Positions 17,559 to 64,000 of a DNA stretch of 64,000 bases are shown here, one piece after another (positions within the stretch are counted from its first letter, which is position 1; every line of letters starts with the position of its first letter). This stretch comes from Schmidtea polychroa. Taxonomy: Eukaryota. The stretch spans positions 46,190,001 to 46,254,000 of the forward strand of contig CM097888.1 of the NCBI GenBank assembly GCA_044892525.1, in the 5' to 3' direction. The notes beneath the pieces are model-generated. The model was not told the DNA's origin, did not search any database, and saw only the letters and a program-made list of their open reading frames with translations. The position numbers and the translations under genes were made by a program.

Positions 17559-17605
17559 CTCTTCTTCTGCCTCGTCTCTTCGTTGTCCATTTCCTATTTC
17601 ACAAT

Positions 17606-44581: not shown

Positions 44582-45154
44582 TATCAAGTTGTTGGGCTGA
44601 GTCGAAGGGTAGTTGGGAATTAGGGAAACTGAACTAAAATAAAATAAAAAATAAAAACAAATAAATTGACAAATAAAATAGAATAAAACATAAGAAAAAC
44701 AATAATTAGAAAATAAGAATTAAAACAAAAATATAAAGATGAGAAAAATTAAAATAAGACAATAGAATGACAGAAAACAACGTAAAATATAGTAAATACT
44801 AAGAAAATTAAGGAAAATAAATAAAAACATAATTTTAATAAAGAAAGTAAGAAGAAATAACTCGAAAACAAAGAAAATAAATTAAATTAATAAAATTAAG
44901 CGGTACTCAATTCTAATTGGTCCGCGCAAACAAAAAATTAATATATAAGCAGACATTAAAAACATAACAATTACTGTTAATCAAACCACCTCAATAGGTA
45001 AATCTATTCTACGACGGAACAGAACTCCAGCAACTAACGCACGATAACTCACGAGGACAATTCCAAGATTCAAAAGATTTTTACAGAACTAGACGACACT
45101 CGAGCATTAACTGATTCGACATAGTACCCTTTTCGACTCAGCCCATACTTGTAT
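44582..45154. mobile_element. MITE-like element, or LTR-internal inverted repeat, ~570 bp
   Basis: ~30-bp imperfect inverted repeats CAAGTTGTTGGGCTGAGTCGAAGGGTA / TACCCTTTTCGACTCAGCCCATACTTG; non-coding A-rich interior. Confidence 0.45.
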
Positions 45155-47400
45155 CAATCATTCGGTAAGGATTTTTGATTGCTTATTTTGGATTTTTAAG
45201 TAATGCGTATAGTTCAATAATATTCTTAATTTAAAAAATGGTTTTTCTTTTCGTTTGATGTTAGAATGCTTTATTTAAATTAATAATTTGCTTAATAATA
45301 AATGATTTGCTCGTTCAGAATTATCGATCTTTTATGAATTAATTTTTATGAATTATTATTGGAGACCATTCAATTTGGCGAGAAACGTGGCGTTGAGATA
45401 CTCTATGTCATGGTGTGAGGTGCCTTCGGGAGCTCCACCGGTGGACATAGGGTATTTCAATCACGCAGCTAGATTGGGCCGAAATGTGAGGGCTTCTTCA
45501 CGGGTCCAATCGCTGAAGGTGCGACTAAAATCTATAGGTAAATGGGAGCCGAAATTGATAGTCATGTAGTGATTGAAAACAAAGATATGTAATAAAGGAA
45601 TCGGAAAATTTTGATATATTCGCGTAGTGATTGAGGGTGTCACACTATCGTCTTCGAATATCGGTTTTGCTAAGCCTAAATTTTCTCTATCATCAATTTA
45701 AGTCGTGTGTCAAAAATTGTTCAAACCTTAGTGAGGCTATCTGTGACATATCTTCGATGTTCATACTTTTCACTCAGAATCTGTTCCGACCAATTTTTAG
45801 CCTATGACCTTCGGAACTGTTATTCCGTTCATCTAAAAGTTCTCTTAAAGACATAGTTGCCAGGAAGTCAAAGTAGATTGCTTCATACAAGTATTAGGTT
45901 TACTCGAAATGACTGCTTGTAAATAAAGAGTAGAATCAGGTAAAATGATTTAATCCAAATAGTTATTCAGAATTGCATAAAACGAGTTCGTTCCAAATAA
46001 AAGTTTAAATTACATAAAATGATTCGCTATCATAATTTTTTAGAATTTTATATAAAAGGAGTTACATACAATTAATTATCATAATCACATAAACTATTGG
46101 CATCAAATAATTTAAAATTGAAAAATGCAACCAATGCGAGCCACGAAAAATATATTTCTTCAAGTTAGCCGATGATCTTGTTAATTAAATATAAAATTCC
46201 AGTATTTCGTGGGGTTGGCAATCCAGCAGGGATAGGTAGAAATCCTCCAGCACTTAGAGAGTAGATCGATAAACTAGGTTTGAGGAATTAAAGACGAAAA
46301 ATCCACCCTTGGAGCAAGCTATATCCAACATTTGCAATACAGATAATTATAATTTTTCCAATAATCCGGTGAGAATTAGTAAATCAGCGCCATATGCAGG
46401 AGAATTGTGAGTGATTACGCGATAGATAAAATTCTGAGAAAATGACATCTTGCAAACATTTAACACCTACAATTGTAGTATAATTAAGTGTGTGACAGCA
46501 CACCCTGCATGCGTCAGCAGTTACAGACTCACCTAGTGGCCAAGTACAGTGGGCAAAGTCACACACGCCTCTACTCAGGAAAAATCCGACGAACATACCA
46601 GATGGAATTTCTATTAACCAATTAGACTACCGACAGGTATCATATTTCACCGCTCCGGATTAATAGTCAACCACCGGGCTGACATTTCCTTATCTACCTA
46701 GCAGGAATGGTCGGCTACTAGCTCACATTGATACTGTGCTCAGTTATCATAAAGACAATATTTTTTTTTTGTGCTAAACCCGATCGTAATTATGATTATT
46801 CTCTCTTTATTATCGTAGAATGAATGGCACGGAAATTATGTCATTTTTGACATAATTATCATTAATATTAATGTCGAATATTATTAATAAATAATATTTA
46901 AACCAGGCAAAACACATGTGAATAATTAGAGAGAATGAATAAATAATTAAAAATTTAAATAGCCTTCCGTTTATCCTGTAGGAATTAATCAACAGACATT
47001 ATGGACCCCTTTTCCATAGATAGTCACTCGACCCCAGTACATGATACCCTCATCAAAATCACTCGTACGGGGGGAGAAGTCAACAAGGTAACTCGATTCT
47101 CGGTAAACGTGAAATAATGACTTCAAGCGGATTGACTAAATAATCAATTTTCGTCGATCTAGAATTCCTCTCACTAATAGTATTACCTTCCTTTCCGTGT
47201 ACGGAATCTGGTTTGATCGATTTATCTTCTTATAATCAAAGACCCAAAAGGTATGAGAATCCATCGTGCAGTAGTACTTGTCTTGACTGGTAAACTCATA
47301 TTTTTGTCTATGATCAGTAAAGTATGAATGGGGTCAGATGGTGACACTCCCGTTGAGTTAATTATTTTCATTTTTCATTTTTTTTCACAGTCACTCAAAA

Positions 47401-48147
47401 ATGTTGCCAAATTCCAAGACCGTTCTTCGACCTTGTTTTTCTTGCTCCGACAAGAATTCAATTATCAAAGAGCTCCAGGCCCAAATCGGAAAGCACAAAA
47501 GAAGGATAGATGAGTTGGAGGGGACATGGTTTAGTCCCACCCAGATGAAGGAGGCTCAGAAGAAGCTGCATCGAAGCGAGCACTGTAGAGACGCGTTGAT
47601 TTCCGAGAGTCGGGCGCAGAGGAGCCTGATAAAAGAGCAGTCGGAGGCGCTGCACAAATTATACGTTGCAGCAGCTACAAGGAGGATCGCGAAGATCCCA
47701 ATTAATGAAGCCAGTAATCTTTTCCCAGCACATCATGATATCTCTGGCGGATCTTCTTCTCCAGTCGGAAAGTCCTGCCATGGGTGCGTAGAGACCGAGC
47801 TCTCACCTAAAGAACCAGAAATCATCTTTACCGGAACCAGTAAAGCGTTACCTGTGATGGCATCTACCTCTGCAGCACCCCCGACCAATCCAACGGCATC
47901 GAAGCCAAAGCGTCGGCAATTATCGAGAGCCGAACGCAAAAGGAAACAGCGGGAACGCGTAACCGCCAAACAGAACCAGCAATCGTCGGATCATCTAATC
48001 AAAGTCATCAACCCTCCTGCAGTAATCGATTTAGCATCAGTGATCTCAGGGCGAATCATCTCCGCCGCTGGGGTTTCCTGGGAGGAAAATGCCTCTGAAT
48101 TTTTCGACTTGGAAGATCTGTTGGCAGACTCAGAGTGGGAGAAATGA
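47401..48147 (+). CDS. LTR-encoded 248-aa protein (coiled coil, basic NLS-like stretch, acidic tail), unknown function
   Basis: Strong polypyrimidine-CAG acceptor ending 47390, just before the ATG; KRRQLSRAERKRKQRER; AATAAA at 48284. Confidence 0.6.
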   Translation: MLPNSKTVLRPCFSCSDKNSIIKELQAQIGKHKRRIDELEGTWFSPTQMKEAQKKLHRSEHCRDALISESRAQRSLIKEQSEALHKLYVAAATRRIAKIPINEASNLFPAHHDISGGSSSPVGKSCHGCVETELSPKEPEIIFTGTSKALPVMASTSAAPPTNPTASKPKRRQLSRAERKRKQRERVTAKQNQQSSDHLIKVINPPAVIDLASVISGRIISAAGVSWEENASEFFDLEDLLADSEWEK

Positions 48148-48283
48148 GAACTTCTCCGTAACAAGTCTTCGTTCACTGAAATGACCCGAACATTGTCGGA
48201 TAACATTTTTACCTTTGTTTCTTTTCCTGTGGTCGTAACTTTTATTGTATAGGTGTTAGGTATATTTGTGTGATAATCTTAAT

Positions 48284-48289
48284 AATAAA
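48284..48289 (+). terminator. Putative LTR polyadenylation signal
   Basis: AATAAA followed by a GT/T-rich downstream element, ~420 bp upstream of the LTR end. Confidence 0.5.
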
Positions 48290-48719
48290 CCATTTTGTCT
48301 GCATACGTTTCCTTTTGTGTTCATCCTAGGACAGTTGAGTTGAAATTGGTGAAGGGTATTGAGAGTCATAAAACTAGGAGGAGCATTAGTCAGTTGGCAA
48401 ACTCAGCTAGAAACATTGCGATGGGGCGACGGAATGAGTAGACGTAAGTCCTTCTATCGGCAGTCAGGGTTGGGAAGTCGAGGCCCCAGTAAGGAGTAGT
48501 CCGGAGGAGCTGGTTCACCTGCTTACTGGCGTCTCGCCGGCATAGCACAGTTCCAACGTGAAGCAATTCACGGGTGCTATGTTGGAGTGTAAGTTATGTA
48601 CGGGTCCCGCTCGGCGATGACCAAATAAATGATGGGCGAAATCGAGGTGGCATTCATCCTCTAGACTAAAGTTGCACTAGAAAGGGGTCATCCGAGTAGT
48701 GTACCCGCAACATAATTTT

Positions 48720-48737
48720 TGGGGGCTCAGCCGGGAT
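48720..48737 (+). promoter_or_regulatory. Primer-binding site, tRNA-Pro type
   Basis: TGGGGGCTCAGCCGGGAT matches 16/18 of the canonical MLV Pro PBS TGGGGGCTCGTCCGGGAT; it lies 7 nt after the CA LTR end. Confidence 0.8.
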
Positions 48738-49035
48738 ATAGATTGAAATTTCCATTGGTCAGTGTAAACTGGATAAGGATGTTATTGAGTGAATTTCTGT
48801 CGAATAGAGTGAACTCACCGGGGTAAGTGATTCCAATGGGTTAGCGAGTGCAAATTGACTAATGCTTATCGAATCTTATTATAAATCACGAATAGAAAAT
48901 AATAAAATTAAAAATATAAATAAAGCAAATTTAATGATGGAGAAATAAGATAAAAGTAAAATAACGATAACGAGTTAGATAAGAGAATGTCCGACGAAAC
49001 GAAGTCATATACTACTGAAACATTTTTTTTTAGAC

Positions 49036-49521
49036 ATGACGGAATTCAATGATCAGATACAACAACTAATCAACTTCATAAACATCGAGAATGACTCCCT
49101 TAAAACGCTGACACAAAAGAGAGAAAGAATTAACATCATACTACTCCAAGCAATCGGGCAAACACCAGCCGTCCCCAACCACATGTTATTAGCCACAGGA
49201 CTAAGTCACCCAGATGGGAAGGTAAACCCGGAAACCGTGTACCAATGGTATCAAGAGAGATTGAACCACCCAGCATTAAATCTTGATTATCAACGTATAA
49301 AAGATCCCTTAAATACCATATCAGATACAATCGAGCGGAAAATACAAGAAAAACTGACTCTACTACGAACTTGCCTTGCTTGTAAACTTCGTCCTATTCG
49401 CGTACTGTTTTTGCCGTGTGGACACCTCAGTCACTGCGAAGAATGCGGGAACGAGCTAACAAGATGCACGATATGTAAGCACGAGATAAAAGAAACTCAT
49501 ATGGTCTACTATGGTGAATGA
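49036..49521 (+). CDS. 161-aa protein with a C-terminal IAP-type C3HC4 RING finger (putative E3 ligase), no BIR
   Basis: CLACKLRPIRVLFLPCGHLSHCEECGNELTRCTICKHEIKETHMVY; splice acceptor TTTTTTTTTTAG 2 nt before the ATG. Confidence 0.88.
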   Translation: MTEFNDQIQQLINFINIENDSLKTLTQKRERINIILLQAIGQTPAVPNHMLLATGLSHPDGKVNPETVYQWYQERLNHPALNLDYQRIKDPLNTISDTIERKIQEKLTLLRTCLACKLRPIRVLFLPCGHLSHCEECGNELTRCTICKHEIKETHMVYYGE

Positions 49522-50158: not shown

Positions 50159-50456
50159 AAGATCGAGTTGTTGAATAGTCCAACCGATCAGAAGGAGGAA
50201 GATTGAGCTGTTGAATAGTGCCAGCCAGTCGTAAGATCGAGTTGTTGAATAGTCCAACCGATCAGAAGGAGGAAGATTGAGCTGTTGAATAGTGCCAGCC
50301 AGTCGTAAGATCGAGTTGTTGAATAGTCCAACCGATCAGAAGGAGGAAGATTGAGCTGTTGAATAGTGCCAGCCAGTCGTAAGATCGAGTTGTTGAATAG
50401 TCCAACCGATCAGAAGGAAGAAGATTGAGCTGTTGAATAGTGCCAGCCAGTCGTAA
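50159..50456 (+). repeat. Tandem array of 4 x 74 bp (each two ~37-bp related halves) in the retroelement leader
   Basis: GATCGAGTTG recurs at 50161, 50235, 50309 and 50383; degenerate half-units at ~50080-50150. Confidence 0.95.
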
Positions 50457-51168
50457 AGGCCTAGAAAAGCGAGAGATAGCAGTTAAGCTACAATGAGGTA
50501 ATATTTAAATTACTAGTGAAATGGAATATTAAAGCTAGCTAGAACAAATAGAAGGTAATTACGAAAATTTGAGTTTAGAGAGGAAATAAACGAGCTCGTG
50601 GAAAAGATAATAAGATTATAATGAAAAAGGAAAGGGAAGAAGGAAACGAATTAAAGAGATAATGGAAAATAAAGAATAGGCGAAACGATGATAATGAGTA
50701 AAGAGGAAAGTAACCAACTAATTAAAGGGACCCCAGTGAAGTAGAGAAACTCTACGGAATAATATTTTTCTTTTTTGGGCGAAGCGGGAGAATATATTTT
50801 ATTGGTTCCAGAGTAGAACCGAGTGAGATAATAGTAAATACGAAAAGTAAAACAGCGACAACCGCGCAAAAAGGACTAGGAAAACGAAAGGGGGGTAATA
50901 AGCAGTGACCGACAACGACCTATTCCTATTATAAGTGATAAAAATAGATAATTATTACGACTCTATAGATAATTGTTACTACCCCATATAGATAATTTAA
51001 AATCGACGAAAATTTCGGGCTGATGGGAGATTATAACCCGCGGAAGTAATTGCATAAAAAATAGGGGAAGCATAAACAGAACCTAAAAGGTGTCTGTGTT
51101 TGAATGTTGCAGAAAGAATGATGAAGTCGTGTAAGCAGATGCAACACGAGATCATTTTTTCATTTTAG

Positions 51169-51489
51169 ATATCAAACCAATCCAGTCAACCAAGACAATC
51201 CAGAACCCGCACAAAAGGAATTCGAAGAAATCGACAATCGACCAAGAATAAATCCATTCAGAACCCGCACCGAGAGACACAGCAACCGGAAGACTCCAGA
51301 ACGGAAGAAGATACAGATAGCGACATCTCCAACTTCGAACGAATCATCGATATATTCAACCTCATAGTATTAGCAGCCATCTGTCAAGGACTAGTAAATC
51401 TCCTCAGAATCACAGTAGCAGATTCATACAGAATACTTATCGAAGGAAACACAATCAGAACTGAACTCGTCCAATTCAGTAGCCGCTAA
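51169..51489 (+). CDS. ATG-less 106-codon open frame, probably a spliced exon of the retroelement
   Basis: Begins at a TTTTTTCATTTTAG acceptor; R/Q/S-rich region, acidic patch, then hydrophobic IIDIFNLIVLAAICQGLVNLL; stop TAA at 51487. Confidence 0.4.
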   Translation: MSNQSSQPRQSRTRTKGIRRNRQSTKNKSIQNPHRETQQPEDSRTEEDTDSDISNFERIIDIFNLIVLAAICQGLVNLLRITVADSYRILIEGNTIRTELVQFSSR

Positions 51490-51827
51490 TTACCAAGAAG
51501 CGTAAGAAAGGAATCACGGATAAACCCAATCTTAGATCTTCAAGTAAGCCAGGAGACGTATTATTTTCAGGAGACGAATTACAACAACTCAAAAGAGGAC
51601 GATCTATTAAACATCAAAGAGGAATATCACAAGGATCAAGAAGAACCAATCAAGTACCTATATTTGACCAAGAAAATCTCGGATACACCCCTAGCCGATC
51701 TCGAAGCAGAGAAAGTCTGTCCGACATCACTAATAGTTTAGCAACGTCAACCGAGGAATTATCAGCCCAAAATTTAGTCACGTCACCGGATAATTTAAAA
51801 GAAACCGACGAATCTAGAACACCAATC

Positions 51828-54800
51828 ATGACGAATGTCGTAAAAACCGACGAGTATAAAGAAAAGTTCCGAGGAGAACCGTTCAATGGAAATGCAAACA
51901 AGCTAGCAACGTTCATAACTAATTTTGAAGTTTATATCACTGTGTGTGGATGGACACCCGAAGCAATTAGTAAAAGGATGCCGTTGTTTTTGTGCGATAG
52001 CGCATTAGAAGTATATTTAGAAGCTAAAGAGAGAGATACGAAATTAGAAAAGTGGGAAGATATCAAAACATTCCTGAAGAAAACCTTCGGAGCCAGTAAG
52101 CCAATCAACCAGGCGTTGGGCGAACTAGCAAATAGGAAACAAAGAGCAAATGAATCCATCACGTTATATGCCAGTGAATTGCGGAGATTGGCAAAGAAAG
52201 CAATGAATGGGAAATTACCAGAAGAAAATTTGATCGGTTATTTCATAGAGGGATTACGCCGAGAAGAAGTAAGAGCCTCAGTAGGTTGTCAAATGTGCAA
52301 AACATTAGAGGAAGCCATAGATTGGGCTACAAGATGCGAGCTCCACCTTCCAGCTCAAATGAATATTATGCAAGAGGAGGGAAGGATAATGACAGCAATA
52401 GCGAAAGCGGATAACGGAGATAACAACAATCAAGAACCGAAAATGAATCAATTTATACCAGGAGCGCACCAAATTTTCAAACCACCACAAGGACGATCAA
52501 ATGGGAATAATGGTAATCGTAACAACCCGAATAATGAGAACAATTTTAATAATCGACGAAATATGAACGATAACAAGCAGTGTCGAACATGCGGTAAACC
52601 AGGACACTGGGACAGAGATTGCTATAGAAATTCAAATTGTAATCGTTGCGGACGGCGTGGACATACCGAAAATGTATGCCAATTGAGAGGTTGTTTTAAC
52701 TGTGGTCAGCCAGGTCACATCTCCAGAGATTGCCGAGAAAGGGGCCAACAACAACGACCACCACAGCGAAATAATAATTATATGGCGAATCCGCAACGAC
52801 AAAGTAACCCTAGCGAAGGAAAACAAATGAACGTTATGCAGGAAATCTCGCAGATGAAACAGATGATGCAACAAATGATGAGACCGAGACCGGAATCAGC
52901 ACCACAACAAACCCAGAATATACGTATGATGAGGAGTACCGAAAATCTCAACAATTATGAAGTGCATCAACATGTACAAGAATGGCAAAGACTACAGGCC
53001 GAGGAAGAGAGGATAAAACAAGAACGCAACCAACAACGACAAGAACAACCATTGCGAATTAATATGATGAAGTTAGTAAAAGACATGAAAAGCCAGTATT
53101 GCTACAATTACGGGAAAAACCCAAGGGTAGTACCCATGACTGAACCAGAAAAGGTAACAGAAACAACAACGGAAATGAAAACAGAGAATTCAACCACGAT
53201 TTTAAAAGGAAACCCGAGAATTCAGAAAATATTCTGGAAAAAGATAAAAGATAAAATCGAAAAAGAACATAATAAAGCGAAAGCCGAGACAGAAGATGAA
53301 AATAACAAGAGCAAGGAACAAACCAGTCAACTAAACCACCAAATGCTACAAGAATTAGAATCAGAAGAAACAACGATATTCGAAAGAAAGAAACTAAAGA
53401 GAGTACCAAGGATGAGAAATTTGCAAATCAATATGATGAAAAGGACAAAAGATGTAGCATCGTCAGACGAAGAAGAAGACTATGTAAGTAGTTTGGGTGG
53501 AGAAATACTACAGCTAAATGAAATAAGCGAACCTCCAAAAGGGGAAATCAAAGAGGAAGAAAGCGAAAGCGAGATAACAAGTGGAAGTGAAGACGAGGAT
53601 ATCGAAATAAAGTTGAGAAAAGCAAGGGAGGAAGCGATAAAACAGGTAGCCGAAATACTCCCGGCGGTAGTGAGAAACCAAGAGTTCATCGACGTAATAC
53701 CATTCAGGCGATTCGTGCAAAAAGTGATGAAATTGGAAAGAAACGAGAAAGATTTAATACCAAACGAGGAAAAATCAATTATAAAAAAGTATATGGAAAA
53801 AATGAAGCAGGCCGATACCACGCGGTATGTAATAAAAATCGGAACGAGCAGAGGACTTGAAAGAATGTGGATCAAAAGTACAGTCACCGACGAACTTTTC
53901 GATTGGATACGAGAACATTTGGGAAATTCGAGAAAGAAAGAATATCTGTATCAATACCAAGGAGAACAGATCAAACCAGATATGCACTTAGTAGATGCAC
54001 TAATATGGCCAGGAGAAACGCAAATACTGAAGTTGCATAAAGAAAAACAACCAGCCAACCTTTACGATTGGGCTAAAGATGCCAAGGCAGAATATGATTT
54101 TAATATCAAATTGAAATTAGAACAAATAAAACAATGTACTCTGAGACGAAACCTGGATAAGCTGATCAAACAAATTCAAGAACAAGTAGAAGACAACTGG
54201 GAATTACTCATCACCAGACGAGCCCCAGCCATGTACGAACTAATGAGCCGATTGCGAGATACAGAAATGCTCCGGATGAGTGATTGGAGAACCATAAATT
54301 TGATCCACAAATATGGAAGGTTAAAAGAAACCCAGCCACAGAGGTTGGAAATAACCATATGGTTACCGAACGAAGAAAAACGACGAATAAAAATGAGCAA
54401 TCGGAGTACAGTGGATGACTTGGTATCAAAGATAAACCAAGAGATAACGGAAAAGGTACGTAGCGAAAGTAGTGATGGTATGGTGGATGATGTAGTCATG
54501 ATGTACGATAAAATAATATTACGAGCAGAAGACGACACCTCGTTAAGCGAATTGGGTATGTGGAACAATCATCAGATCATCAGGATAGTACCAATGGATG
54601 AATTTCGAACAAGAGATGTAATCTATCAAAAAGAAATACGAGACCGGATGAAAACGTTATATCAAAAATCTACAGAAATAATTGAAATCCACCAACAATG
54701 GTTAAAAGAAAAAGAACTACAAGGAAAAATCACGAAATTAAGCACCAGATCCTGCAGACGAACCCCATGGGAAAGAGTGTGGAATGCAGAAAATAAGGAA

Positions 54801-57800
54801 TGGGAAATCCGGAAAGGAATCTTCGTAGAAACAGACATTGGTGAGACAGAAAGTGAATCGGAGGAAGAAGAAGAGGAACCTCCAGAATATGAAGAGGAAG
54901 CAAGGGGACAGACATCAGATGACGAAAGCGAGACGGATGTCACATCAGAAAGCGAAAATGAAGCGAGACATATTCATGCAATGAGGAAAAAGGAACGTGA
55001 ATATGCTGATATGGACGGCGAGGAAGCGACGGAAGCAAGAGAACGAGAAGAGAAAGAAAGATATAAACAATTAGGCGATATCTTAGCAATGGGAGCGAAA
55101 AATCAAAAACGCCAAGTAGTAGCGTTGGCTAACATCATCTTAAAGACATCAGAGAACATCCACAATCTGAGAGGAATGGCAAAGGCAATAGAGGAATACC
55201 GGCAATATAATGAATGGTATCCAGAACAGCTAGAACAAATTATTCGAAAATGGAGAAATCAGGAATGGGCACAAGACACTCAGGAGAGGAATCACATCCG
55301 AATCAAGTATCCGGACAAGAGCATCGAGGAACTAGAGGTGCATCCAACAACAAAGATTAGAGAATTAAAAAAGAAATTAGCATATGAAACTCCATTCCAT
55401 CTGCAACTGTTCGGAAAATCACTAGACGATAATGCAGACGTCGGAATAACACCCATGAGATTGGAAGAGACAAATGTGTTAACAATGGCAGAAACGTTGG
55501 GAAAGCCGTTAAAAAGGAAAAGTAAAATTACTAAACCAACAAAAAGCAGTTTGAGTACTCCAAGTCCGAACAAAGCACCAAGTAAATCTAATGAAACTGA
55601 AGAAGTTGAAGAGATAATCCTGGAAGATAGTGACGATGAACCAGGAGAAAGATCACCGCTATTAGTAAGATGGCCGACAGGAGCCGAAATGTGGACTAAT
55701 AACCAGCCATCAACGAGTTATCAACAACCAACGAAACTAAACATCAAAGAAATCATCGACAACACTACGGAAACCGAAACGGATGAACAATTCCAGAAGC
55801 AAAGAGAACCAACGAAAGTAACACCAGAAGGTCAAACCGATAAAATAATAGATGAATGGAATGAGTGGCTAAGAAATAACGATAGCTCATTACCCAGAAC
55901 GGATAACGAAAGAAATCCGAATTACGAAAATACCAGAGAAGCCGGAACGATGATGGAAAAACGGGCAAAAGGAAGACCTAAGAAACAAGGAGAAAAGTCT
56001 GAGTTCAAAACCAAAGAACAATTAAAGCAAGAACAAGGGCAAGTTCGATTAGAAAAATTGGATAAAATAGTATGGGATCTAAAGGAAGCCCAACCAACGA
56101 TCGAAAGAGGAGAAAAATGGATACGAGAATTGATCAAAGATATGTTAATAATAACAAACCCACAACTTAGACGTTTGTGGCAACGGAAAGTAGCCAGTAC
56201 GGAAGCTAGACAATTATGGCACATCGTTTCGGGGATAATCCCAAAGTTAATCAAAGAGAAAACGAAAACCACCAAAACGGATTGGGATGAAACGAAGAGA
56301 GTGATTGCACAACTCACGACAAATGCAAATGATGACGAACATCATCTAGTGGTAATCACGTATTTGATGTATAATTTGATGGGACTAGCTGCGAGGAAAA
56401 TACCAAATAAACAGTTTGCAAATCATGTGGAAATGACCGTTTCAATCATAGAAAATACTATTGAACCACATATTATTCGTGCCGGAGGATGGAAAAGACT
56501 GATACAAGCGCCACGAAAAAATGAGCAAGAAAGGTCGATGCAAGTTAGATTGAAAAAACTGTTAAATGAACTAGAATGGGAACTACCGATGAAAGATCCC
56601 GCAAGCAGAAAAGCATCAATAAATTCGTTAATGATGACTATGATGATATGGATGTTGTGCACAAGTGGAGCAACGGGTTTTACCATCTACGATTGTGATA
56701 ATATGATAATGAGAGATATATACTCATTGAGAGACATAGAAGAATGCAGACAAGCATCACCCAACAAATTAGACATAGTAAGAACAAAAGTTACTTACCA
56801 TGTATATCAGGAATCAGATTTCATCAGAACGCAAGCAAGGGAATGCGTGGTATCAAAAAAGGTACTCGCATATTACTGTGGACAATATTCGTATTCGACT
56901 CTTATACTACCCGGCCTGGACAAAGAAATCGTATCAATACAACGAGAGGACTGTAAAGAGCTATTTAGAACCGGAGCGTTAAAAATGCATAACGGAGTGA
57001 CGATTCACGGACAAACTGGAATGATTAAAACCGAAAGTGTTTACGTATCCGGAAAAGTAAAATCATCAGATGGGTCATGTAACGGAGGTACGTATACGAT
57101 CCGAGGCGAGGTAATATCGGGAGTAGTAGTGATCGAGTCTTATACGGTTGAATTAAAAGAATACGAAGCGCAATTTGACGCAAATAATTACCAAATGAAG
57201 ACCAACCCAGCGTGTAGGGCTACAGAAAACGTATGCAGGACAGGAGTATCAACTATAATCTATGAAGCTAATACCCAAAAATGCCGACTCCAACTGTTAA
57301 AAAGTGCCTTGTTCAATGAAGTAAAAGGAGAAATATATGAGAACGAGAACGACGAGGATGGAAACGACAGGGTGAGAATGCGAAATGGAAAACCAATGCC
57401 ACCATCTCCCAGAGAAAAGAGACTTTCAACGCAGAAGACACCAACAGCATTAATCACAGACGATCCAGATCTAGGTATGAGATTTATCAAAGAGAAAGAA
57501 ACCACCAAATGTGACAGTATAGTATATAAAACCAATTACGCAGGCATCTATATGTCGAGACAAATAATCGATAGAGCAGTGGGAAAGATAGCAACGGAGG
57601 ACGTAAAACTATACTTATATGCAAATAATAAAATGGATTTTCTATTTCATCGCGGACAAACGACCTTGCAAAAAGTATATTACGATCTGATACAAAACGA
57701 TTGTTCATTGAATAAAGAAATATTGAAAACAAAGCTAGCTATTGCGATAACGCACCCAGATAACACGATGCCATCACTCCCATTACCGGATGGACATTTT

Positions 57801-60800
57801 GGTAGAATGGTAGGAGAAGTAATGTACACATACCAGTGTACCAAGACGTATGCACGAATGCCAGAAAAATCTATACTACCCGAAAAGAGATGTGCAAATG
57901 AATTAGAAATCCGTTATAAAGGACAAAATCGATTCGTCCAACCAGTCACTAGAATTATGAATCCAGTGGGTTTCTACCCAAATCTCTTTAACTGTTCTAA
58001 TGCATACGGACCTTTGTATGAAAGGCCCGATGGGAAATGGATGATGTTACCGGGAAAAACCATATCCGAGGAGCCCAAGAAATTTGGATTAATAGAACTC
58101 GCCACAGAGCTGGATTTCAAACCTATAGACGTGTCAAACGGTGGTATGTATTCCCCAGAAGATCTAGAAACAGCACGACTTAACGTACTCTTCCCAGCCA
58201 GACGAGAATCCATTTTGTCAAATATGGTTACAATAACGGGGGGAACAAATTATCAATCAGGCCCGAATTACGAACTGCTACTATCGCCAGACCATTTTCA
58301 ACAAGCCACGTCAAACATGATGAAAGCAATGTGGGGAAGATTCTTAGTTTTTGGACAAATGATGGCCGGGATATTAGGGATCATACTCATAATTCAGATA
58401 GTCAGGGTAATATTAACACAAATGTTAGCTTGTTTTGATATATACAAGCGGGAAAAGAAAGTAAATTGGAAAATGATAGTAGGCTTTCTACCATTTTTAG
58501 CAAAAACCATGGTATTACATGGTCACTCAAAAGACATTCATCGGATAAAGCGATTGATTAAAATATTAACAAAGATTAAAGGAACCGACGAAGAAGTAGG
58601 CAGACGATTCCGGAAAGTAATGTACGATGAAGCAACAAGACGACAATTGAAAAAGAATAAGCCAAAATTCTTGGACCGATTTAGAAGCCAATCATCTAAC
58701 AGCGATAGTGACGACGATGATAACGGGAACGACAAATGTCTATATCCAAACAGAAACCCAAACGAAAAACCAATGGAAACGGCACCATATTGGGAAAAGG
58801 AAAAGACAAATACCTGGATCGCCAATGGAAGCTACATACCACCGGATATCGTGGGACCACAAGCAGCTTTGACCATGACACAAAATATGTATCCGCAATT
58901 ACCAAGTCAACCCGGTATGCATTATATGCCAACACGACGTACCAAAAGTGTAGATCAAGCAGATGACGTAAGAACAATAGCAGCGATGAGTCTACCTGGA
59001 GGTCCAGCAGTAACAGTTATGATTCGAATCAATGGTAAAGAAACCAATGCTATGATAGACACCGGAGTTAATGTATCAGCGATAGCGATTAATCAAATCC
59101 CCAGTAAACACTGGAAAGATATCGAATCAACAACAATTCACATCATAGCATGTAGTAAAGAAACAGTGGACGTGGTCGGAAGATGGTGGACTACTTTGAG
59201 ATACCAGGACAACGAAATTGAAACGTATTTGGCAGTAATACCAAAACTTAGCGTACCATGCATAATCGGAACGGATTTGATGCCAGAATTGTTAAAAGAA
59301 GTCGTAATTGACTTAACAACCATGTGTTTAAAAGACAAAACCGGTAGAATATGCAAAATGAATGCAGTCATCAGATGTCCAGAAAAAATAATAGTACCAG
59401 CAAAATCGCAGATGATTTGTCAGATAAAAGTGGATACGGGTATGGAAGGAGAAGTTATCTTTGAACCAAGCAAGTCATTTGAAAAGCGACGAGAATTACC
59501 ACTCGCAAGAGAAATAATCACAATAAACCAAGAAGGAGTGATACCGCTCAACATCACGAATTTCGAAGAGGAAGACAAAATCATTTATGAGAACGAAAAA
59601 TTGGGAAGATTGACCCCAATGATGGACATAGAATTACCGAAAATGACCAACGAGATGAGCAAAGATGATGAATTATGGACAATAGATAGTATGTTGTTGA
59701 CGAATGATGAAAAGAAAAAATTGCACCGATTGTTGGTAGAATATAAAGATATATTCGCCATCTCAGATTTAGACTTGGGTACATGCGATGTTACCCTACA
59801 TGCAATACCCCTCATAGATGAAACTCCAATTGCATTAAGACCATACAAGCTAGCAGAAATGCAAAAAGAAATAGCCGAAGCAGAAGTACAAAAGATGCTG
59901 GACGCAAAAGTAATCGAACCGAGTTGCTCACCCTGGCAATTCCCAGTGGTCATGGTAAAAAAGAAAGATGGCACCCAACGATTCTGTATCGATTATCGGA
60001 AGTTAAACGCAGTAACCAAGAGAGATACCTATCCATTGCCGGACATCAATGAGATGTTATTGATGTTGCAAGGGGCAGCATATTTTACTTCTTTAGATCT
60101 TAAAAGTGGATACTGGCAAATTAAAGTCAAAGATGAGGACAAAGAGAAAACAGCTTTCACGTTGGGACGAGATCTATATCAATTCAGGAAAATGCCATTC
60201 GGACTAACCAACGCACCAGCATCATTTCAACGATGTATGAACTTTGTCACTCATGGAATCAAACAATGTATGGTATATATTGATGATTTACTAATCTATT
60301 CAGCGACATTTGAACAACATCTGGAAGATATCCGAAACGTATTTATTAGATTAAGACAGTGGAAACTCAAACTCAAACCATCAAAATGCGATTGGGCAAA
60401 GGAAAAAGTCACGTTTTTGGGACACATAGTGTCAGCTAAAGGAAAGGAGCCAGATCCAAGAAACATTGAGAAAATAAAAACATGTCCAGCACCGAAAACT
60501 GTCACCCAAGTTCAGGAATTTCTAGGATTATGCGGATACTATCGCAAATTTATCAAAAATTATGCAGGAATTGCAAAACCAATCCAGGAATTAGTAAAGA
60601 AGGACATTTCGTTCATTTGGGGGAAGGAACAACAAGAGGCGTTTGAAACGCTGAGAGATAAACTAATCGAAGCACCTATCCTCGTACACCCAGATTTTAA
60701 GAAGCCATTTCTATTGGCAACGGATGCAAGCGGGTACGCGGCAGGCGCGATTCTGGGACAATTAGACGATGAAGGAAAAGAGAGAGTAATCGGGTATTAC

Positions 60801-63800
60801 AGTCGAACATTCAAAAAGCACGAAAAGAACTATTCGGTAACAGAACGAGAAGCATTGGCTATAATACAAGCTATCAAACACTTCCGATACTTACTATGGG
60901 GACATGAGATATGTATAACCACAGATCATCAACCATTAGTGTGGTTATGGCAACATAAAGAAGCGTCCAGTAGACTGATGAGATGGGCCATGCAATTGCA
61001 AGAATACTCCCCATTTATAAAATTCAAAGCGGGAAGAGCAAATGCCAACGCCGATTGTATGTCAAGATTTATTTTTCCAGATTTGGTAGATTCAGAAATG
61101 CAAAGCATATGCTTAATAGTAGCGGAAGATTTGGATTTCTGTCAATTGCGAAAGGACCAACAAGAGGACGCGGAATTAAAACAAATTATCGATTATGTAA
61201 AAACCGGAAAGACAGATGTATATGCGAAAGACCAAAAATTAAAAGAACATATGGATAAACACCAACACCGATATATTATAGAGAAAGATTGGTTGCTGAT
61301 AATGGATGGGGAAAAACGATTAATGTGTATACCGGAAAACCGACGAAAAGAGTTGTTAACGCAATATCACGATGGGAGATTGGGAGGACATATGTCATCG
61401 AAAAAGACGTTAGCAAGAATGAAACAGAAATATTTTTGGCCTACGTTAACCGAAGACGTAACCGAATGGGTAAAAAATTGCCTAACTTGTGCGACCAGGA
61501 AAAATACTGGATCGAAATGGAAAGCACCTTTGACGCCAATGCCGGTACCAATAGAGCCGATGACGATGATATCCATGGACGTAGTTGGTCCACTACCAGA
61601 GTCAGATAAAGGAAATATTTACATTTTAGTGATTACCGACTTTCTCACGAAATTTCCAGAAGCATTCGCGATGCCAGACCAAAAAGCTAAAACAATCGCA
61701 AAAATTTTGGTAGAAGAGATATGTTGCCGATATGGAACACCAAAACAGATATTAACCGATCAGGGAACTAATTTTATGAGTGAGATAATGAGCGAAGTAA
61801 CGAACTATTTCAAAATCGCAAAATTGAGAACAGCACCGTATCATCCTCAAACCAATGGGATGACGGAAAGATTTAATGGAACACTTATACAAATGTTATC
61901 AAACTACGTCGACCGTCACCAACGAGATTGGGACGAATATATAAACCTATGTCTTATGGCGTACAGAATGTCGATTCACGCATCAACGAAAATGAGCCCA
62001 TTCAAATTAATGTACGGAAGAGAATGTAATATGCCAATGGACCTGGAATACCAACCACCGATATCGCAGTATATGGAGATCGATGATTATGTTACGAAAT
62101 TCAAGGAAAGAATGCAAGAAATTTGGGAAACTGCGAAATTAAATATCAAGTTCTACCAGGAAAGTTATAAAGATTTACACGATCGAAAGAAAAACGTGAA
62201 GCAACATACGTTTCAAACAGGTGATTGGGTAATGATAGAAACCCCGGAATTAATTCCAGGAACCACAAAAAAGTTACAACGCAACGGAAAAGGACCATAT
62301 GAGATCTTATTCGTAGGCGAAACCAATGTAAGAGTGAAATTGGTAAATAATCCATTCACCAGGCCAATATACGTAAACGTGGCACGATGTAAATCAATTC
62401 CAAAAACCGCCACCAGTCAACCGGAAGGTCGAACATTAACCACACGTTCGCAAACCTACAAAATGAACATGATGCAACAACTCGCAGAACCGATCACTGG
62501 ACGATTGGTCATACAACCATCGGAAGCGGAAAAAATCGTACGAGAGGTAAAGACAAAATTACCCGGATGGGCAAAAGATCGATTAGATTTCGAAATATTA
62601 GGAGGATTATTGACGATGATCGAAAACTATGCAAATAGAGAAAGGACACACCCATTATTGCGAGTAGTCAAAAGCCAATGGCCAATATTATTCACAATAA
62701 CAGATCATTATGGAGACACACCATTACACAAACTCATGAAAGTAGGTAACAACGAGCAAATACTGGAAACAATAGAAGCATTTCACGACTGCAAGCGATC
62801 AACAGAACAAGAAAACAACCAAGGTTACACACCATTAATGATAGCAGCAAACAGAGGCAAAACAAAAGACATCATAACCGCATTACTTGATACTGGATCA
62901 AAAATAACTACACAAGATCGCGAGCGGAAAAACGCACTACATCATGCTATCGAAGGGAAAAGTACCGAAGCGTTCACATCGTTGATGGAGTTACTATCAT
63001 ATGAGGACAATCAAGAAGTTGGAAACATGTATGATGGATTATTAACAGCGATCAAAGAGAAACTGACAACAATTACAGGAGTATTAATCACTTGGAGAAA
63101 CCCAATTAGAAATAATTATATGATCAACGTAAACGAAGCATTCACGAAAGGGGAGAACACGCTTATGAGAGAAGCTATGAAAGGACATCATTTATTCGAA
63201 ATCCCGAATCAATTGTTAGAACGAGGGATAACATTCACAAATCATAAGGATGAGCAGTTATTAAAAAAGCGAATAGACGCATTCGAAAAATCAATATTCC
63301 AATTTACTAACCAAGTACGGAATAAATATTGGGAAACGGTAAGTGTGTTATATATGATGGACACAATGAATAACATCCGCGAGAATTACCTGGATATTAT
63401 CCAAATACTTACAGCAGAGGAACGAATCAATAATCCAAACGGAAAGAAAACGAAAATAAGGTATGGGAAATCAAGGGAACCAAAGTCGACAACGAACCAA
63501 ACGGTCACAAACAACGTCATCGAAACCAAATCAATGAGTATAGATCAAGAGGCAATAATACGCAAAGCAAAAGAAGTATTCTTCGAGGAAACGCTAGAGC
63601 TGTCAGACGAAATAATATTGTCAAAAATAATAAAAGCCGTACACACATACGCAAGAGATCAAACCACGGGTTTAGATATCGGGAAAATCAAAACCTTCTT
63701 GCCTCGAGCATTTACGATGGTGACGAAAGATTCAAGAACACCATTACAACAAGCAATACTAGCTGCAAAAGAGAATAGAGCAATAACGATCATAAGAATC

Positions 63801-64000
63801 CTTGGGGATATGGGCGAGGAAACCAACACGAAAAATGAACAAGGCGAAACCGCCATGATGTATGCAGCTATAACAAAAATACACCCAAAAACACTCCACA
63901 TCCTACATCAATCAGGATCGAGACTAGACGAAAAATCAAACGAAGGGAACTCCACATTGGACTGGGCAACCATACAGCCAAACTTGGAAATGATCAGATT
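51828..64000 (+). CDS. Giant polyprotein, >4057 aa, 3'-partial: Gag CA, 3xCCHC, 3xUBL, Bcl-2-like, signal peptide, fusion glycoprotein, TM, PR, dUTPase-like fold, RT, RNase H, IN, ankyrin repeats
   Basis: Same frame checked at ATG 51828, FTIYDC 56679, DTG 59058, YIDD 60276, IN D61578/D61758/E61866 (D-35-E) and the window end. The ORF track lists no terminated ORF in this frame. The frame is open upstream to 51483. Confidence 0.93.
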   Translation, partial: MTNVVKTDEYKEKFRGEPFNGNANKLATFITNFEVYITVCGWTPEAISKRMPLFLCDSALEVYLEAKERDTKLEKWEDIKTFLKKTFGASKPINQALGELANRKQRANESITLYASELRRLAKKAMNGKLPEENLIGYFIEGLRREEVRASVGCQMCKTLEEAIDWATRCELHLPAQMNIMQEEGRIMTAIAKADNGDNNNQEPKMNQFIPGAHQIFKPPQGRSNGNNGNRNNPNNENNFNNRRNMNDNKQCRTCGKPGHWDRDCYRNSNCNRCGRRGHTENVCQLRGCFNCGQPGHISRDCRERGQQQRPPQRNNNYMANPQRQSNPSEGKQMNVMQEISQMKQMMQQMMRPRPESAPQQTQNIRMMRSTENLNNYEVHQHVQEWQRLQAEEERIKQERNQQRQEQPLRINMMKLVKDMKSQYCYNYGKNPRVVPMTEPEKVTETTTEMKTENSTTILKGNPRIQKIFWKKIKDKIEKEHNKAKAETEDENNKSKEQTSQLNHQMLQELESEETTIFERKKLKRVPRMRNLQINMMKRTKDVASSDEEEDYVSSLGGEILQLNEISEPPKGEIKEEESESEITSGSEDEDIEIKLRKAREEAIKQVAEILPAVVRNQEFIDVIPFRRFVQKVMKLERNEKDLIPNEEKSIIKKYMEKMKQADTTRYVIKIGTSRGLERMWIKSTVTDELFDWIREHLGNSRKKEYLYQYQGEQIKPDMHLVDALIWPGETQILKLHKEKQPANLYDWAKDAKAEYDFNIKLKLEQIKQCTLRRNLDKLIKQIQEQVEDNWELLITRRAPAMYELMSRLRDTEMLRMSDWRTINLIHKYGRLKETQPQRLEITIWLPNEEKRRIKMSNRSTVDDLVSKINQEITEKVRSESSDGMVDDVVMMYDKIILRAEDDTSLSELGMWNNHQIIRIVPMDEFRTRDVIYQKEIRDRMKTLYQKSTEIIEIHQQWLKEKELQGKITKLSTRSCRRTPWERVWNAENKEWEIRKGIFVETDIGETESESEEEEEEPPEYEEEARGQTSDDESETDVTSESENEARHIHAMRKKEREYADMDGEEATEAREREEKERYKQLGDILAMGAKNQKRQVVALANIILKTSENIHNLRGMAKAIEEYRQYNEWYPEQLEQIIRKWRNQEWAQDTQERNHIRIKYPDKSIEELEVHPTTKIRELKKKLAYETPFHLQLFGKSLDDNADVGITPMRLEETNVLTMAETLGKPLKRKSKITKPTKSSLSTPSPNKAPSKSNETEEVEEIILEDSDDEPGERSPLLVRWPTGAEMWTNNQPSTSYQQPTKLNIKEIIDNTTETETDEQFQKQREPTKVTPEGQTDKIIDEWNEWLRNNDSSLPRTDNERNPNYENTREAGTMMEKRAKGRPKKQGEKSEFKTKEQLKQEQGQVRLEKLDKIVWDLKEAQPTIERGEKWIRELIKDMLIITNPQLRRLWQRKVASTEARQLWHIVSGIIPKLIKEKTKTTKTDWDETKRVIAQLTTNANDDEHHLVVITYLMYNLMGLAARKIPNKQFANHVEMTVSIIENTIEPHIIRAGGWKRLIQAPRKNEQERSMQVRLKKLLNELEWELPMKDPASRKASINSLMMTMMIWMLCTSGATGFTIYDCDNMIMRDIYSLRDIEECRQASPNKLDIVRTKVTYHVYQESDFIRTQARECVVSKKVLAYYCGQYSYSTLILPGLDKEIVSIQREDCKELFRTGALKMHNGVTIHGQTGMIKTESVYVSGKVKSSDGSCNGGTYTIRGEVISGVVVIESYTVELKEYEAQFDANNYQMKTNPACRATENVCRTGVSTIIYEANTQKCRLQLLKSALFNEVKGEIYENENDEDGNDRVRMRNGKPMPPSPREKRLSTQKTPTALITDDPDLGMRFIKEKETTKCDSIVYKTNYAGIYMSRQIIDRAVGKIATEDVKLYLYANNKMDFLFHRGQTTLQKVYYDLIQNDCSLNKEILKTKLAIAITHPDNTMPSLPLPDGHFGRMVGEVMYTYQCTKTYARMPEKSILPEKRCANELEIRYKGQNRFVQPVTRIMNPVGFYPNLFNCSNAYGPLYERPDGKWMMLPGKTISEEPKKFGLIELATELDFKPIDVSNGGMYSPEDLETARLNVLFPARRESILSNMVTITGGTNYQSGPNYELLLSPDHFQQATSNMMKAMWGRFLVFGQMMAGILGIILIIQIVRVILTQMLACFDIYKREKKVNWKMIVGFLPFLAKTMVLHGHSKDIHRIKRLIKILTKIKGTDEEVGRRFRKVMYDEATRRQLKKNKPKFLDRFRSQSSNSDSDDDDNGNDKCLYPNRNPNEKPMETAPYWEKEKTNTWIANGSYIPPDIVGPQAALTMTQNMYPQLPSQPGMHYMPTRRTKSVDQADDVRTIAAMSLPGGPAVTVMIRINGKETNAMIDTGVNVSAIAINQIPSKHWKDIESTTIHIIACSKETVDVVGRWWTTLRYQDNEIETYLAVIPKLSVPCIIGTDLMPELLKEVVIDLTTMCLKDKTGRICKMNAVIRCPEKIIVPAKSQMICQIKVDTGMEGEVIFEPSKSFEKRRELPLAREIITINQEGVIPLNITNFEEEDKIIYENEKLGRLTPMMDIELPKMTNEMSKDDELWTIDSMLLTNDEKKKLHRLLVEYKDIFAISDLDLGTCDVTLHAIPLIDETPIALRPYKLAEMQKEIAEAEVQKMLDAKVIEPSCSPWQFPVVMVKKKDGTQRFCIDYRKLNAVTKRDTYPLPDINEMLLMLQGAAYFTSLDLKSGYWQIKVKDEDKEKTAFTLGRDLYQFRKMPFGLTNAPASFQRCMNFVTHGIKQCMVYIDDLLIYSATFEQHLEDIRNVFIRLRQWKLKLKPSKCDWAKEKVTFLGHIVSAKGKEPDPRNIEKIKTCPAPKTVTQVQEFLGLCGYYRKFIKNYAGIAKPIQELVKKDISFIWGKEQQEAFETLRDKLIEAPILVHPDFKKPFLLATDASGYAAGAILGQLDDEGKERVIGYYSRTFKKHEKNYSVTEREALAIIQAIKHFRYLLWGHEICITTDHQPLVWLWQHKEASSRLMRWAMQLQEYSPFIKFKAGRANANADCMSRFIFPDLVDSEMQSICLIVAEDLDFCQLRKDQQEDAELKQIIDYVKTGKTDVYAKDQKLKEHMDKHQHRYIIEKDWLLIMDGEKRLMCIPENRRKELLTQYHDGRLGGHMSSKKTLARMKQKYFWPTLTEDVTEWVKNCLTCATRKNTGSKWKAPLTPMPVPIEPMTMISMDVVGPLPESDKGNIYILVITDFLTKFPEAFAMPDQKAKTIAKILVEEICCRYGTPKQILTDQGTNFMSEIMSEVTNYFKIAKLRTAPYHPQTNGMTERFNGTLIQMLSNYVDRHQRDWDEYINLCLMAYRMSIHASTKMSPFKLMYGRECNMPMDLEYQPPISQYMEIDDYVTKFKERMQEIWETAKLNIKFYQESYKDLHDRKKNVKQHTFQTGDWVMIETPELIPGTTKKLQRNGKGPYEILFVGETNVRVKLVNNPFTRPIYVNVARCKSIPKTATSQPEGRTLTTRSQTYKMNMMQQLAEPITGRLVIQPSEAEKIVREVKTKLPGWAKDRLDFEILGGLLTMIENYANRERTHPLLRVVKSQWPILFTITDHYGDTPLHKLMKVGNNEQILETIEAFHDCKRSTEQENNQGYTPLMIAANRGKTKDIITALLDTGSKITTQDRERKNALHHAIEGKSTEAFTSLMELLSYEDNQEVGNMYDGLLTAIKEKLTTITGVLITWRNPIRNNYMINVNEAFTKGENTLMREAMKGHHLFEIPNQLLERGITFTNHKDEQLLKKRIDAFEKSIFQFTNQVRNKYWETVSVLYMMDTMNNIRENYLDIIQILTAEERINNPNGKKTKIRYGKSREPKSTTNQTVTNNVIETKSMSIDQEAIIRKAKEVFFEETLELSDEIILSKIIKAVHTYARDQTTGLDIGKIKTFLPRAFTMVTKDSRTPLQQAILAAKENRAITIIRILGDMGEETNTKNEQGETAMMYAAITKIHPKTLHILHQSGSRLDEKSNEGNSTLDWATIQPNLEMIR

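Follow-up and report, generated by a model that had tools for sequence, protein, structure and literature searches.

The stretch of DNA analysed here, 64,000 nucleotides from Schmidtea polychroa (the window), carries an envelope glycoprotein (Env) embedded in the giant polyprotein of a Burro-type element. We hold it to be probable that this Env, a class III fusogen by its predicted fold, enters the ER by means of an internal signal and aids the passage of particles or RNA from cell to cell. Its position in frame between Gag and the protease, claimed in an earlier note on this DNA, was confirmed: Gag with its zinc knuckles lies upstream (51981-52736), and protease (PR), reverse transcriptase (RT), RNase H (RH) and integrase (IN) lie downstream (59016-61847), an arrangement that is real and far beyond chance. 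The layout is odd but already known, and the novelty ascribed to it did not hold, as it is in print for the planarian element Burro (PMC6431247) and, in the part of PMC13524379 considered here, for gB-type errantiviruses of GAG-ENV-POL order.

The features of the element are collected in Table 1. It is likely a Burro-type Ty3/gypsy LTR retrotransposon. From the start of the 5' LTR to the end of the next LTR it spans 30.3 kb with an internal region of about 22 kb, within the size of Burro elements (more than 30 kb in total, internal region up to 25 kb). As expected of Ty3/gypsy elements, the LTR has TG...CA ends and is followed by a likely primer-binding site, which we take to resemble the tRNA-Pro site of murine leukaemia virus. 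A Pfam scan gave the Pol order PR-RT-RH-IN with gypsy-type profiles (RVP, RVT_1, RT_RNaseH, Integrase_H2C2 and rve, together with Retrotrans_gag), and no BEL/Pao-type family was among its 17 hits. The accessory ORF with a RING lacks a BIR.

Table 1. Features of the element in the window.
Feature	Position	Strand	Remarks
5' LTR	44590..48712	+	4,123 bp; ends TGTTG...CAACA; boundary set where the alignment with an unlinked copy's 3' LTR stops
Likely primer-binding site	48719..48736	+	immediately 3' of the LTR end
Accessory ORF, C-terminal IAP-type RING	48979..49521	+	180 aa; PF13920 E 3.8e-11
Single polyprotein ORF	51483..64000, continuing past the window	+	first Met 51828
Gag: Retrotrans_gag and three CCHC zinc knuckles	51981..52736	+	PF03732 E 1.3e-10, PF00098
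Ubiquitin-like stretch, weak	55296..55400	+	PF00240 E 0.021, below cut-off
Bcl-2-like segment, weak	56340..56492	+	PF00452 E 0.063, below cut-off
Predicted internal signal peptide	~56628..56678	+	ends in small residues ahead of the mature start FTIYDC
Class III (gB-fold) Env ectodomain, predicted	56679..58340	+	554 aa, 14 conserved Cys, one sequon
REKR, furin-like	57411..57422	+	family-specific variable loop, low model confidence
Membrane-proximal helix and transmembrane anchor	58341..58436	+	core 58359-58415; model helix 537-585
Conserved weakly hydrophobic segment after the anchor	58461..58517	+	KD19 1.31
Aspartic protease	59016..59291	+	PF00077 E 2.4e-8
Reverse transcriptase and RNase H	59955..61007	+	PF00078 E 1.2e-35, PF17917 E 5.7e-39
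Integrase, H2C2 finger and core	61329..61847	+	PF17921, PF00665
Ankyrin repeats, two groups	62751..63995	+	PF12796 E 4.8e-15, PF13637

The family is young and high-copy. Identity between the 5' LTR and the next LTR is 99.7-100%, and the corresponding figure for the 5' and 3' LTR stretches of the two other copies checked is 99.9-100%. The next unit of the array, 26,181 bp downstream, shows 100.000% identity over 10 kb; the third unit is truncated, so that no target-site duplication could be read. Such a perfect twin could stem from duplication during assembly, and the in-frame fusion of Env might be suspected of being an assembly or annotation artefact as well. However, Env lies in long frames in 78 scored copies, which are spread over four large contigs, and a second family and unrelated records have the same layout. 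As an account of the layout the artefact is therefore refuted, its probability being practically nil, and doubt remains for the tandem twin only.

The polyprotein ORF runs without a single stop through 4,172 codons from 51483 to the end of the window and thus encodes at least 4,172 aa. From stop to stop it has 4,273 codons, 459 fewer than the common length of 4,732 codons found in 44 of the 78 scored copies. The order of its domains is Gag, the ubiquitin-like and Bcl-2-like segments, signal, Env, transmembrane anchor (TM), PR, RT, RH, IN and ankyrins. At the place equivalent to the Bcl-2-like segment, the relative P0006 gave a better match (E 0.00096). Neither BIR nor MATH was found inside the polyprotein by the Pfam scan, and MATH/TRAF is encoded by a separate ORF downstream. 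In full-length copies the ankyrins are followed by an additional C-terminal protein with a second signal and TM, which had no Pfam match. A motif resembling [IM]N[IMV]M, a pattern picked post hoc, recurs at the domain junctions, with 5 occurrences as against 0.18 in shuffled sequences (none of 2000 shuffles scored as high), and may mark protease cleavage sites.

All nine Env motifs quoted in the earlier note are present and read in the same frame as the giant ORF, starting at 56679 (FTIYDC), 56724 (SLRDIEEC), 56871 (YYCG), 57072 (GSCNGGTY), 57411 (REKR), 57618 (YANNKMDF), 57813 (GEVMYTYQC), 57900 (ELEIRY) and 57933 (FVQPVTRI). The ectodomain of about 550 aa described there as Cys-rich has 2.5% Cys, compared with 1.3% elsewhere. 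Each of the 14 Cys is present in 94% or more of the alignment rows having a residue at the position, which fits an oxidising lumen. The single N-glycosylation sequon was found in only 3 of 103 rows. Env matches PF24664, the Monjiviricetes fusion glycoprotein family, with an E value of 4.1e-72 and 243.5 bits against a curated cut-off of 27. The furin-like REKR is present as claimed, but among 16 close rows the query alone has the pattern RX[KR]R, and none of 72 other rows that carry residues at this place has it; it is private to the query family, which rules out furin cleavage as a family trait.

With the 103 alignment rows, AF2 gave an Env model with a pLDDT of 88.4 and a pTM of 0.68 (pLDDT 34 from the single sequence), and the model has a gB-like fold with a long central helix. 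All 38 rows shown from a Foldseek search against PDB were herpesvirus gB (E 1e-13 to 8e-11), and the top match in BFVD was the G protein of Tacheng tick virus 4 (E 2.8e-36, TMq 0.64); the comparison that the note had suggested thus matched both chuvirus G and gB. In the VIA structure comparison the top five rows were also gB, with HSV gB at Z 10.3 and rmsd 8.6 over 433 aligned residues, and the TM-scores of the model to gB were about 0.4. Searches of PDB by sequence gave no hit with phmmer and weak gB matches with a profile (best E 0.0075). The modelled fold is class III, and the PF24664 match and the predicted fold agree in supporting the assignment to chuvirus/Monjiviricetes-like class III glycoproteins.

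Two membrane crossings that leave Gag and Pol cytosolic had been proposed, and the predicted signal and TM are indeed in the right places for this topology, which we infer from them. The call of the internal signal peptide, by which the two-crossing topology is supported, rests on hydropathy and conservation: only one 11-aa window of the polyprotein is more hydrophobic than this segment, which is identical in 26 of 26 copies, and in 12 of 13 relatives the mature Env start is preceded by a hydrophobic stretch. Within the polyprotein a strong 19-aa hydrophobic window occurs only once (58359-58415, KD 2.53), inside the proposed TM. The conserved segment that follows it, with KD19 of 1.0-1.7 in 11 of 16 relatives (those where the anchor pattern located the segment), could complicate the topology, and it likely rests along the membrane rather than across it. 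Neither the signal peptide nor the single sequon nor this segment features in the earlier note.

On this topology, the internal signal peptide would open translocation of Env into the ER, signal peptidase would free the Env N-terminus at FTIYDC, and the TM would stop transfer, so that Pol is synthesised on the cytosolic side. Until the protease of the element releases them, likely by cutting the [IM]N[IMV]M-like junction motif, the Gag precursor would be bound to the membrane through the cleaved signal, and Pol through the tail of Env. Such tethering would bring capsid, enzymes and Env together at a single membrane. A bolder extension, which we offer tentatively and think rather unlikely, is that enveloped particles infectious from cell to cell are made by a non-retroviral route, in which the polyprotein makes four membrane crossings (at the signal, at the Env TM, and at the second signal and TM, those of an extra surface protein behind the ankyrins), Gag and Pol are from the outset attached to the membrane that bears Env, no myristoylated matrix is needed, and the protease of the element releases them at [IM]N[IMV]M.

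A Gag:Env:Pol ratio of 1:1:1 would follow only if splicing, early termination and selective decay play no part. Capsids require much more Gag than Pol, and among single-ORF retrotransposons copia uses splicing and Tf1 uses Pol decay; these precedents suggest that one of the three processes could yield an excess of Gag here, leaving the complete two-crossing polyprotein a minor product. We regard this as a serious possibility, though with less than an even chance, as the stretch from Gag to IN has neither stop nor frameshift in the window copy. All contigs of four sequencing runs of unknown library type, when aligned, cover the stretch 50500-64000. Among 15 of the 22 joints listed for these runs, one skips most of Env, at a depth of 35 against about 150,000 and with non-canonical ends.

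To assess selection on Env, 30 loci were picked by the upstream region; after removal of 3 with misregistration in Env and of the identical twin, 26 copies remained. The pN/pS of Env among them is 0.035 over 1,449 bases, and the shared variants comprise 60 synonymous and 3 non-synonymous changes. The Env protein is under strong purifying selection, and mere upkeep of an open frame for Pol does not explain so low a value. These data also bear on whether Env has lost fusion and is kept as a membrane scaffold that anchors Gag and Pol for intracellular assembly. The single ORF that links Env to both in cis and the poor conservation of the furin site would suit a scaffold. So would the polar second (residues ~125-136) of the putative fusion loops, which were placed from secondary structure alone; the first is aromatic and conserved. 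A mere anchor, however, would require the signal and TM alone, whereas the ectodomain throughout, with its 14 Cys and its CG-x-[YH]-S-[YH] loop, is conserved and shared with free viral G proteins under the constraint given above, and we consider the loss of fusion improbable.

A full HMMER search found 993 relatives of Env at E<=0.001; word-index homologue searches at near and longer lengths returned no relatives. In 11 of the 25 relatives scanned Env is followed by an in-frame protease, and in 3 of these 11 Gag or a knuckle also lies ahead. Another Env-bearing family in the same genome has only 36% identity to the window Env, and a locus of this genome (L021) is near-identical by eye to the Env of Smed_errantivirus_2 printed in the part of PMC13524379 considered. 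An unrooted FastTree tree was built from 101 of the best 150 of the 993 matches, rows thus picked by similarity to the query; in it the 17 top rows cluster with one other row (SH 99), apart from an 83-row group that contains the G of Tacheng tick virus 4.

The homology with negative-strand RNA virus glycoproteins, from which capture had been deduced, is clear. The direction of transfer is less so, since the retroelement-embedded Envs form a deep group of their own in the unrooted tree. A recent capture from a chuvirus-like virus into the element lineage would accord with chuvirus-type G being the closest named free proteins among the matches listed, and the part of PMC10084718 considered reports a BEL/Pao element that took up a chuvirus G. 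Yet Env is just 18-25% identical to standalone G, its group stands apart from the Tacheng tick virus 4 group, the second family of the same genome has already diverged as described, and the part of PMC13524379 considered favours an ancient association of Env with Pol. We therefore give a recent capture little credence.

Being young, high-copy, under strong selection on Env and resident in a tractable animal, the window family offers a clean test case. It could be used to ask whether the gB-type envelopes of retrotransposons are fusogenic, and how one polyprotein yields capsid, envelope and enzymes.

The window Env resembles herpesvirus gB in overall predicted fold and the long central helix, but it is shorter and only about 10% identical. 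Herpesvirus gB requires the partners gH/gL, which have no evident counterpart in the window element. Flavivirus and alphavirus polyproteins contain internal signal and stop-transfer segments, through which glycoproteins come to lie in the lumen while the products on either side of them are cytosolic; the likeness is one of working only, without homology, and their fusogens are class II. With the G of chuviruses (Jingchuvirales) and the G captured by BEL/Pao elements (Anakin), Env shares PF24664, the Cys frame and the predicted fold at about 20% identity, but those proteins come from a standalone gene or one after the integrase, in contrast to the position between Gag and protease here.

The gB-type elements of GAG-ENV-POL order were catalogued in 2026 from flatworms, nematodes and bryozoans, in the part of PMC13524379 considered, where neither a single polyprotein nor its topology is taken up. 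Smed_errantivirus_1-6, as described there, share with the window element a Ty3/gypsy Pol, a gB-fold Env ahead of Pol and a flatworm host, and their furin site is likewise not always conserved. None of their six printed domain I-II sequences is identical to the window Env, the nearest by eye being that of _5 (about half identical).

A close likeness in layout is to Burro, described in 2019 as carrying an env that sits in frame between the gag and pol parts and has homology to mononegavirus glycoproteins (PMC6431247); the part of that paper considered traces the giant planarian Ty3/gypsy elements Burro and GYPSM1 to Jurka 2007 and Grohme et al. 2018. Like the window element, Burro exceeds 30 kb with LTRs and has one giant ORF, a Gag with three CCHC knuckles, ubiquitin-like and BCL2-like modules, a mononegavirus-matching env in frame between BCL2 and PR, ankyrins after IN, and RING and MATH/TRAF cargo (PMC6431247). 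The window element has the single giant ORF with three-knuckle Gag, weak BCL2-like segment, env, Pol and ankyrins, and the planarian host. Burro env was likened to the F protein of gypsy and baculoviruses in PMC6431247, whereas the predicted fold of the window Env is class III (gB). Burro1 has an ORF1 of 4,873 aa, against 4,732 codons from stop to stop in the window family, and it carries a BIR, and MATH_TRAF_C within ORF1, whereas the window element is without BIR and has MATH/TRAF in a separate ORF. BIR is carried by a different high-copy family, and the 4 of 6 fetched BIR loci that were tested had no DNA match to the window element. The missing BIR, the placement of MATH and the lack of a match at these loci rule out identity with Burro1/GYPSM1; the window family is likely a sister of Burro1.

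On the forward strand, a single stop-free frame runs from position 51483 to the window end (4,172 codons), and the polyprotein frame of this copy closes about 100 codons beyond it, at a total of 4,273 codons. The nine motifs that an earlier note had cited for a Chuvirus/Monjiviricetes-type fusion glycoprotein all lie in this giant frame, each where that note had placed it, and the identity was borne out by a Pfam match to PF24664 (Monjiviricetes_fusion, E 4e-72). The ectodomain of this glycoprotein (Env; 56679-58340) is 554 aa long, contains 14 Cys and carries a single N-glycosylation sequon; the transmembrane segment (TM) proposed at 58341-58436 contains the sole strong transmembrane window of the polyprotein, 58359-58415. 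The placement between Gag and protease also held: Retrotrans_gag and zinc knuckles precede Env, and the Pfam order on its 3' side is protease, RT, RNase H, integrase and ankyrins.

A full HMMER search returned 993 relatives of Env at E<=0.001, and the best 150 were taken further. Among these 150, the best relatives (27-46% identity) are mostly long polyproteins, and the weaker matches, about 650 aa in length, are standalone proteins. An in-frame protease was found behind the glycoprotein in 11 of 25 scanned relatives, 3 of which also have Gag or a knuckle ahead of it. Among ten weaker matches that were looked up, one bears the name Tacheng tick virus 4 glycoprotein, another is a cluster with beetle genome proteins, and the remainder are unnamed or hypothetical. 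Three further observations concern single relatives. P0008 is a retroelement polyprotein catalogued under a Flavobacteriaceae MAG, likely through contamination; P0150 has Ig domains fused to the PF24664 domain; and P0054 has DUF5641 ahead of PF24664, an arrangement that we take to be BEL/Pao-like.

An AlphaFold model of Env, built on a 103-row alignment (pLDDT 88.4, pTM 0.68), matched both chuvirus G and herpesvirus gB, two of the three structures with which the earlier note had proposed comparison. Foldseek against PDB gave herpesvirus gB in all 38 matches listed (best E 1.2e-13, TM about 0.4), and against viral structures its top rows were chuvirus-type G (E 2.8e-36, TMq 0.64). In VIA-align, five gB chains rank first (Z 10.3, rmsd 8.6, 433 aligned), and Bourbon virus Gp and Chandipura G appear at Z 5.6-5.7, amid unrelated helices. 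Each of the 14 cysteines is retained in 94-100% of rows. Because Foldseek, VIA-align and cysteine conservation agree, we concluded that the modelled fold is class III, of gB type. Of the predicted fusion loops, the first is conserved and aromatic and the second polar. In a FastTree tree of the 103 rows, the top 17 rows and one more form one group (SH 99), separate from an 83-row group containing named chuvirus G; since the tree is unrooted and its rows were picked by similarity to the query, it gives deep separation and not direction. Env may plausibly have been captured from a negative-strand RNA virus.

Variation in Env was counted at loci chosen by their upstream region, so that copies were not selected by Env itself; of 30 loci, three (misregistration) and an identical twin were left out, leaving 26 copies. 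Across 1,449 bases of Env, pN/pS is 0.035, shared variants being 60 synonymous versus 3 non-synonymous and singletons 37 versus 24. Since upkeep of an open frame for Pol would purge stops and not amino-acid changes, this pattern indicates that the Env protein itself counts for propagation of the element.

The topology proposed earlier, with Gag and Pol cytosolic on either side of Env, requires an internal signal. Ranked by hydrophobicity, the 11-residue window immediately before FTIYDC comes second in the polyprotein; it has small residues at its end, and a hydrophobic stretch occupies the corresponding place in 12 of 13 relatives, the 13th being not anchorable; by its sequence, this window is the predicted signal. 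Translation would likely start in the cytosol, where Gag and cargo are made first; the signal would then probably open translocation, signal peptidase would be expected to release the Env N-terminus, and the TM would likely halt transfer, Pol being synthesised in the cytosol. The Gag and Pol precursors would remain tethered to the membrane until protease cleavage. After the TM there is a conserved, weaker hydrophobic stretch, with KD19 of 1.31 in the window's copy and 1.0-1.7 in 11 of 16 relatives, where located (TM, 1.9-2.5). We infer that it runs along the membrane without crossing, because a third crossing would place Pol in the lumen. The 1:1:1 ratio of Gag, Env and Pol proposed earlier would hold only for an unspliced RNA whose products are of equal stability. 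The furin-like REKR site was not upheld as a conserved feature: it lies in a loop with pLDDT 52-66 that is missing or altered in relatives, and RX[KR]R at this place is confined to 1 of 16 close rows, namely the query itself, and 0 of 72 others; REKR is kept in 26 of 26 copies of the window's family.

Five instances of the motif [IM]N[IMV]M were counted: one behind the capsid domain, one behind the knuckles, two in the next linker and one behind integrase. Shuffled sequences gave a mean of 0.18 and none of 2000 was as high, an optimistic figure as the pattern was picked after inspection. Similar words flank the protease on either side, and the motif is a likely candidate site for the element's protease.

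In a longer copy, another predicted signal and TM close the ORF; therefore the full-length polyprotein would span the membrane four times. In full-length copies this second predicted type I membrane protein has a signal, an ectodomain of about 250 aa, a TM and a short tail ending S-R-I, which presumably fits the class I PDZ-binding pattern; a Pfam scan of it gave no match. In the window's copy it is out of frame with the polyprotein, whose frame ends 459 codons early, past the ankyrins.

Features of the element and of the surrounding window
Feature	Position	Strand	Remark
LTR, TG...CA	44590-48712	+	likely primer site directly after
IAP-type RING-only accessory ORF	48979-49521		outside polyprotein
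Short tandem repeat in leader	50083-50456		units of ~74-81 bp
[IM]N[IMV]M-like motif	52359, 52827, 53058, 53427, 62463; also 52920, 54972, 58977, 59358		
TRAF-like accessory ORF	L011:3226-4662		RING, zinc fingers, MATH; E 3e-26; L011 is the window's copy beyond the window
Second predicted type I membrane protein	L044:1769-2782; window's copy L011:1364-2668		L044, another locus of the genome
Separate high-copy BIR family	L082-L087		BIR domain in 392/393-codon ORF
Env-less conventional gypsy element, decayed gypsy pieces, CENP-B/pogo-like transposase ORF, hAT-like fragments	14523-18361 (-); 4755-7367; 8134-9762; 25202-26538		named by eye, from translations
Open frame of basic/acidic repeats	28405-37158	-	2,917 codons; SKRGRKSKK and KRTRGRQKK units; probably exon of a host chromatin protein

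From the LTR start to the end of the next LTR the element measures 30.3 kb. The TRAF-like and RING-only ORFs are immune and cell-death cargo, and coiled-coil ORFs also lie outside the polyprotein beyond the window. Among 78 scored copies, the best of 2,769 candidates and thus biased toward intact ones, the Env protein is 99-100% identical and a 4,732-codon frame is present in 44; in each of 2 copies compared, the paired LTRs share 99.9-100% identity. We concluded that the family is young and abundant. Just 5' of the ORF, one contig of run X4 (library type unspecified) skips 52 bases with GT..AG ends at 51393-51446. From 44590 onward there is a tandem array with shared LTRs (L011, L012, L048, L080); its second unit lies 26,181 bp further along, matches the first at 100.000% across 10 kb and has an equally shortened frame, reflecting either very recent duplication or assembly duplication, and its third is broken off inside Gag. 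Another pair lies 26,212 bp apart (C2:177689696 and C2:177715908). Four other copies (L043, L045, L046, L047) have about 98% DNA identity around Env and LTRs strongly divergent from that of the window (91-96% in one copy, only short 75-91% patches in another); the two LTR stretches of each match one another, a sequence pattern that suggests LTR swapping between subfamilies.

PMC6431247 describes Burro elements as exceeding 30 kb and containing a single ORF with three knuckles and Ubi/SUMO-like and BCL2-like modules. BURRO1 RNA rises on SMEDWI-2 loss (PMC8532177), and Burro1 is cited second-hand in PMC13465017 as bearing a RING-BIR protein that aids regeneration. Because a BIR is lacking in the window's element and present in the separate high-copy family, the former is probably sister to Burro1. 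The BIR ORF of the latter is likely the Burro1 B-IAP. Among the papers listed by the literature searches, no title or abstract opening deals with the topology or processing of this polyprotein, which other papers may cover. Chuvirus G in arthropod genomes is treated in PMC10084718. GAG-ENV-POL elements of gB type are catalogued for nematodes, bryozoans and flatworms in PMC13524379, which cites Sacco et al. 2022 for nematodes and includes six in Schmidtea mediterranea. By eye, the window's Env equals none of these six errantiviruses as printed there. The Env of a second env-bearing family in the same genome (Env 36% identical, same Bcl-2-like/Env/protease order) is, also by eye, near-identical to Smed_errantivirus_2, a likeness by which the genome was assigned to that planarian species. 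We concluded that the window's Env is a real, well-conserved class III Env within a Burro-type polyprotein, a layout already described in the literature.
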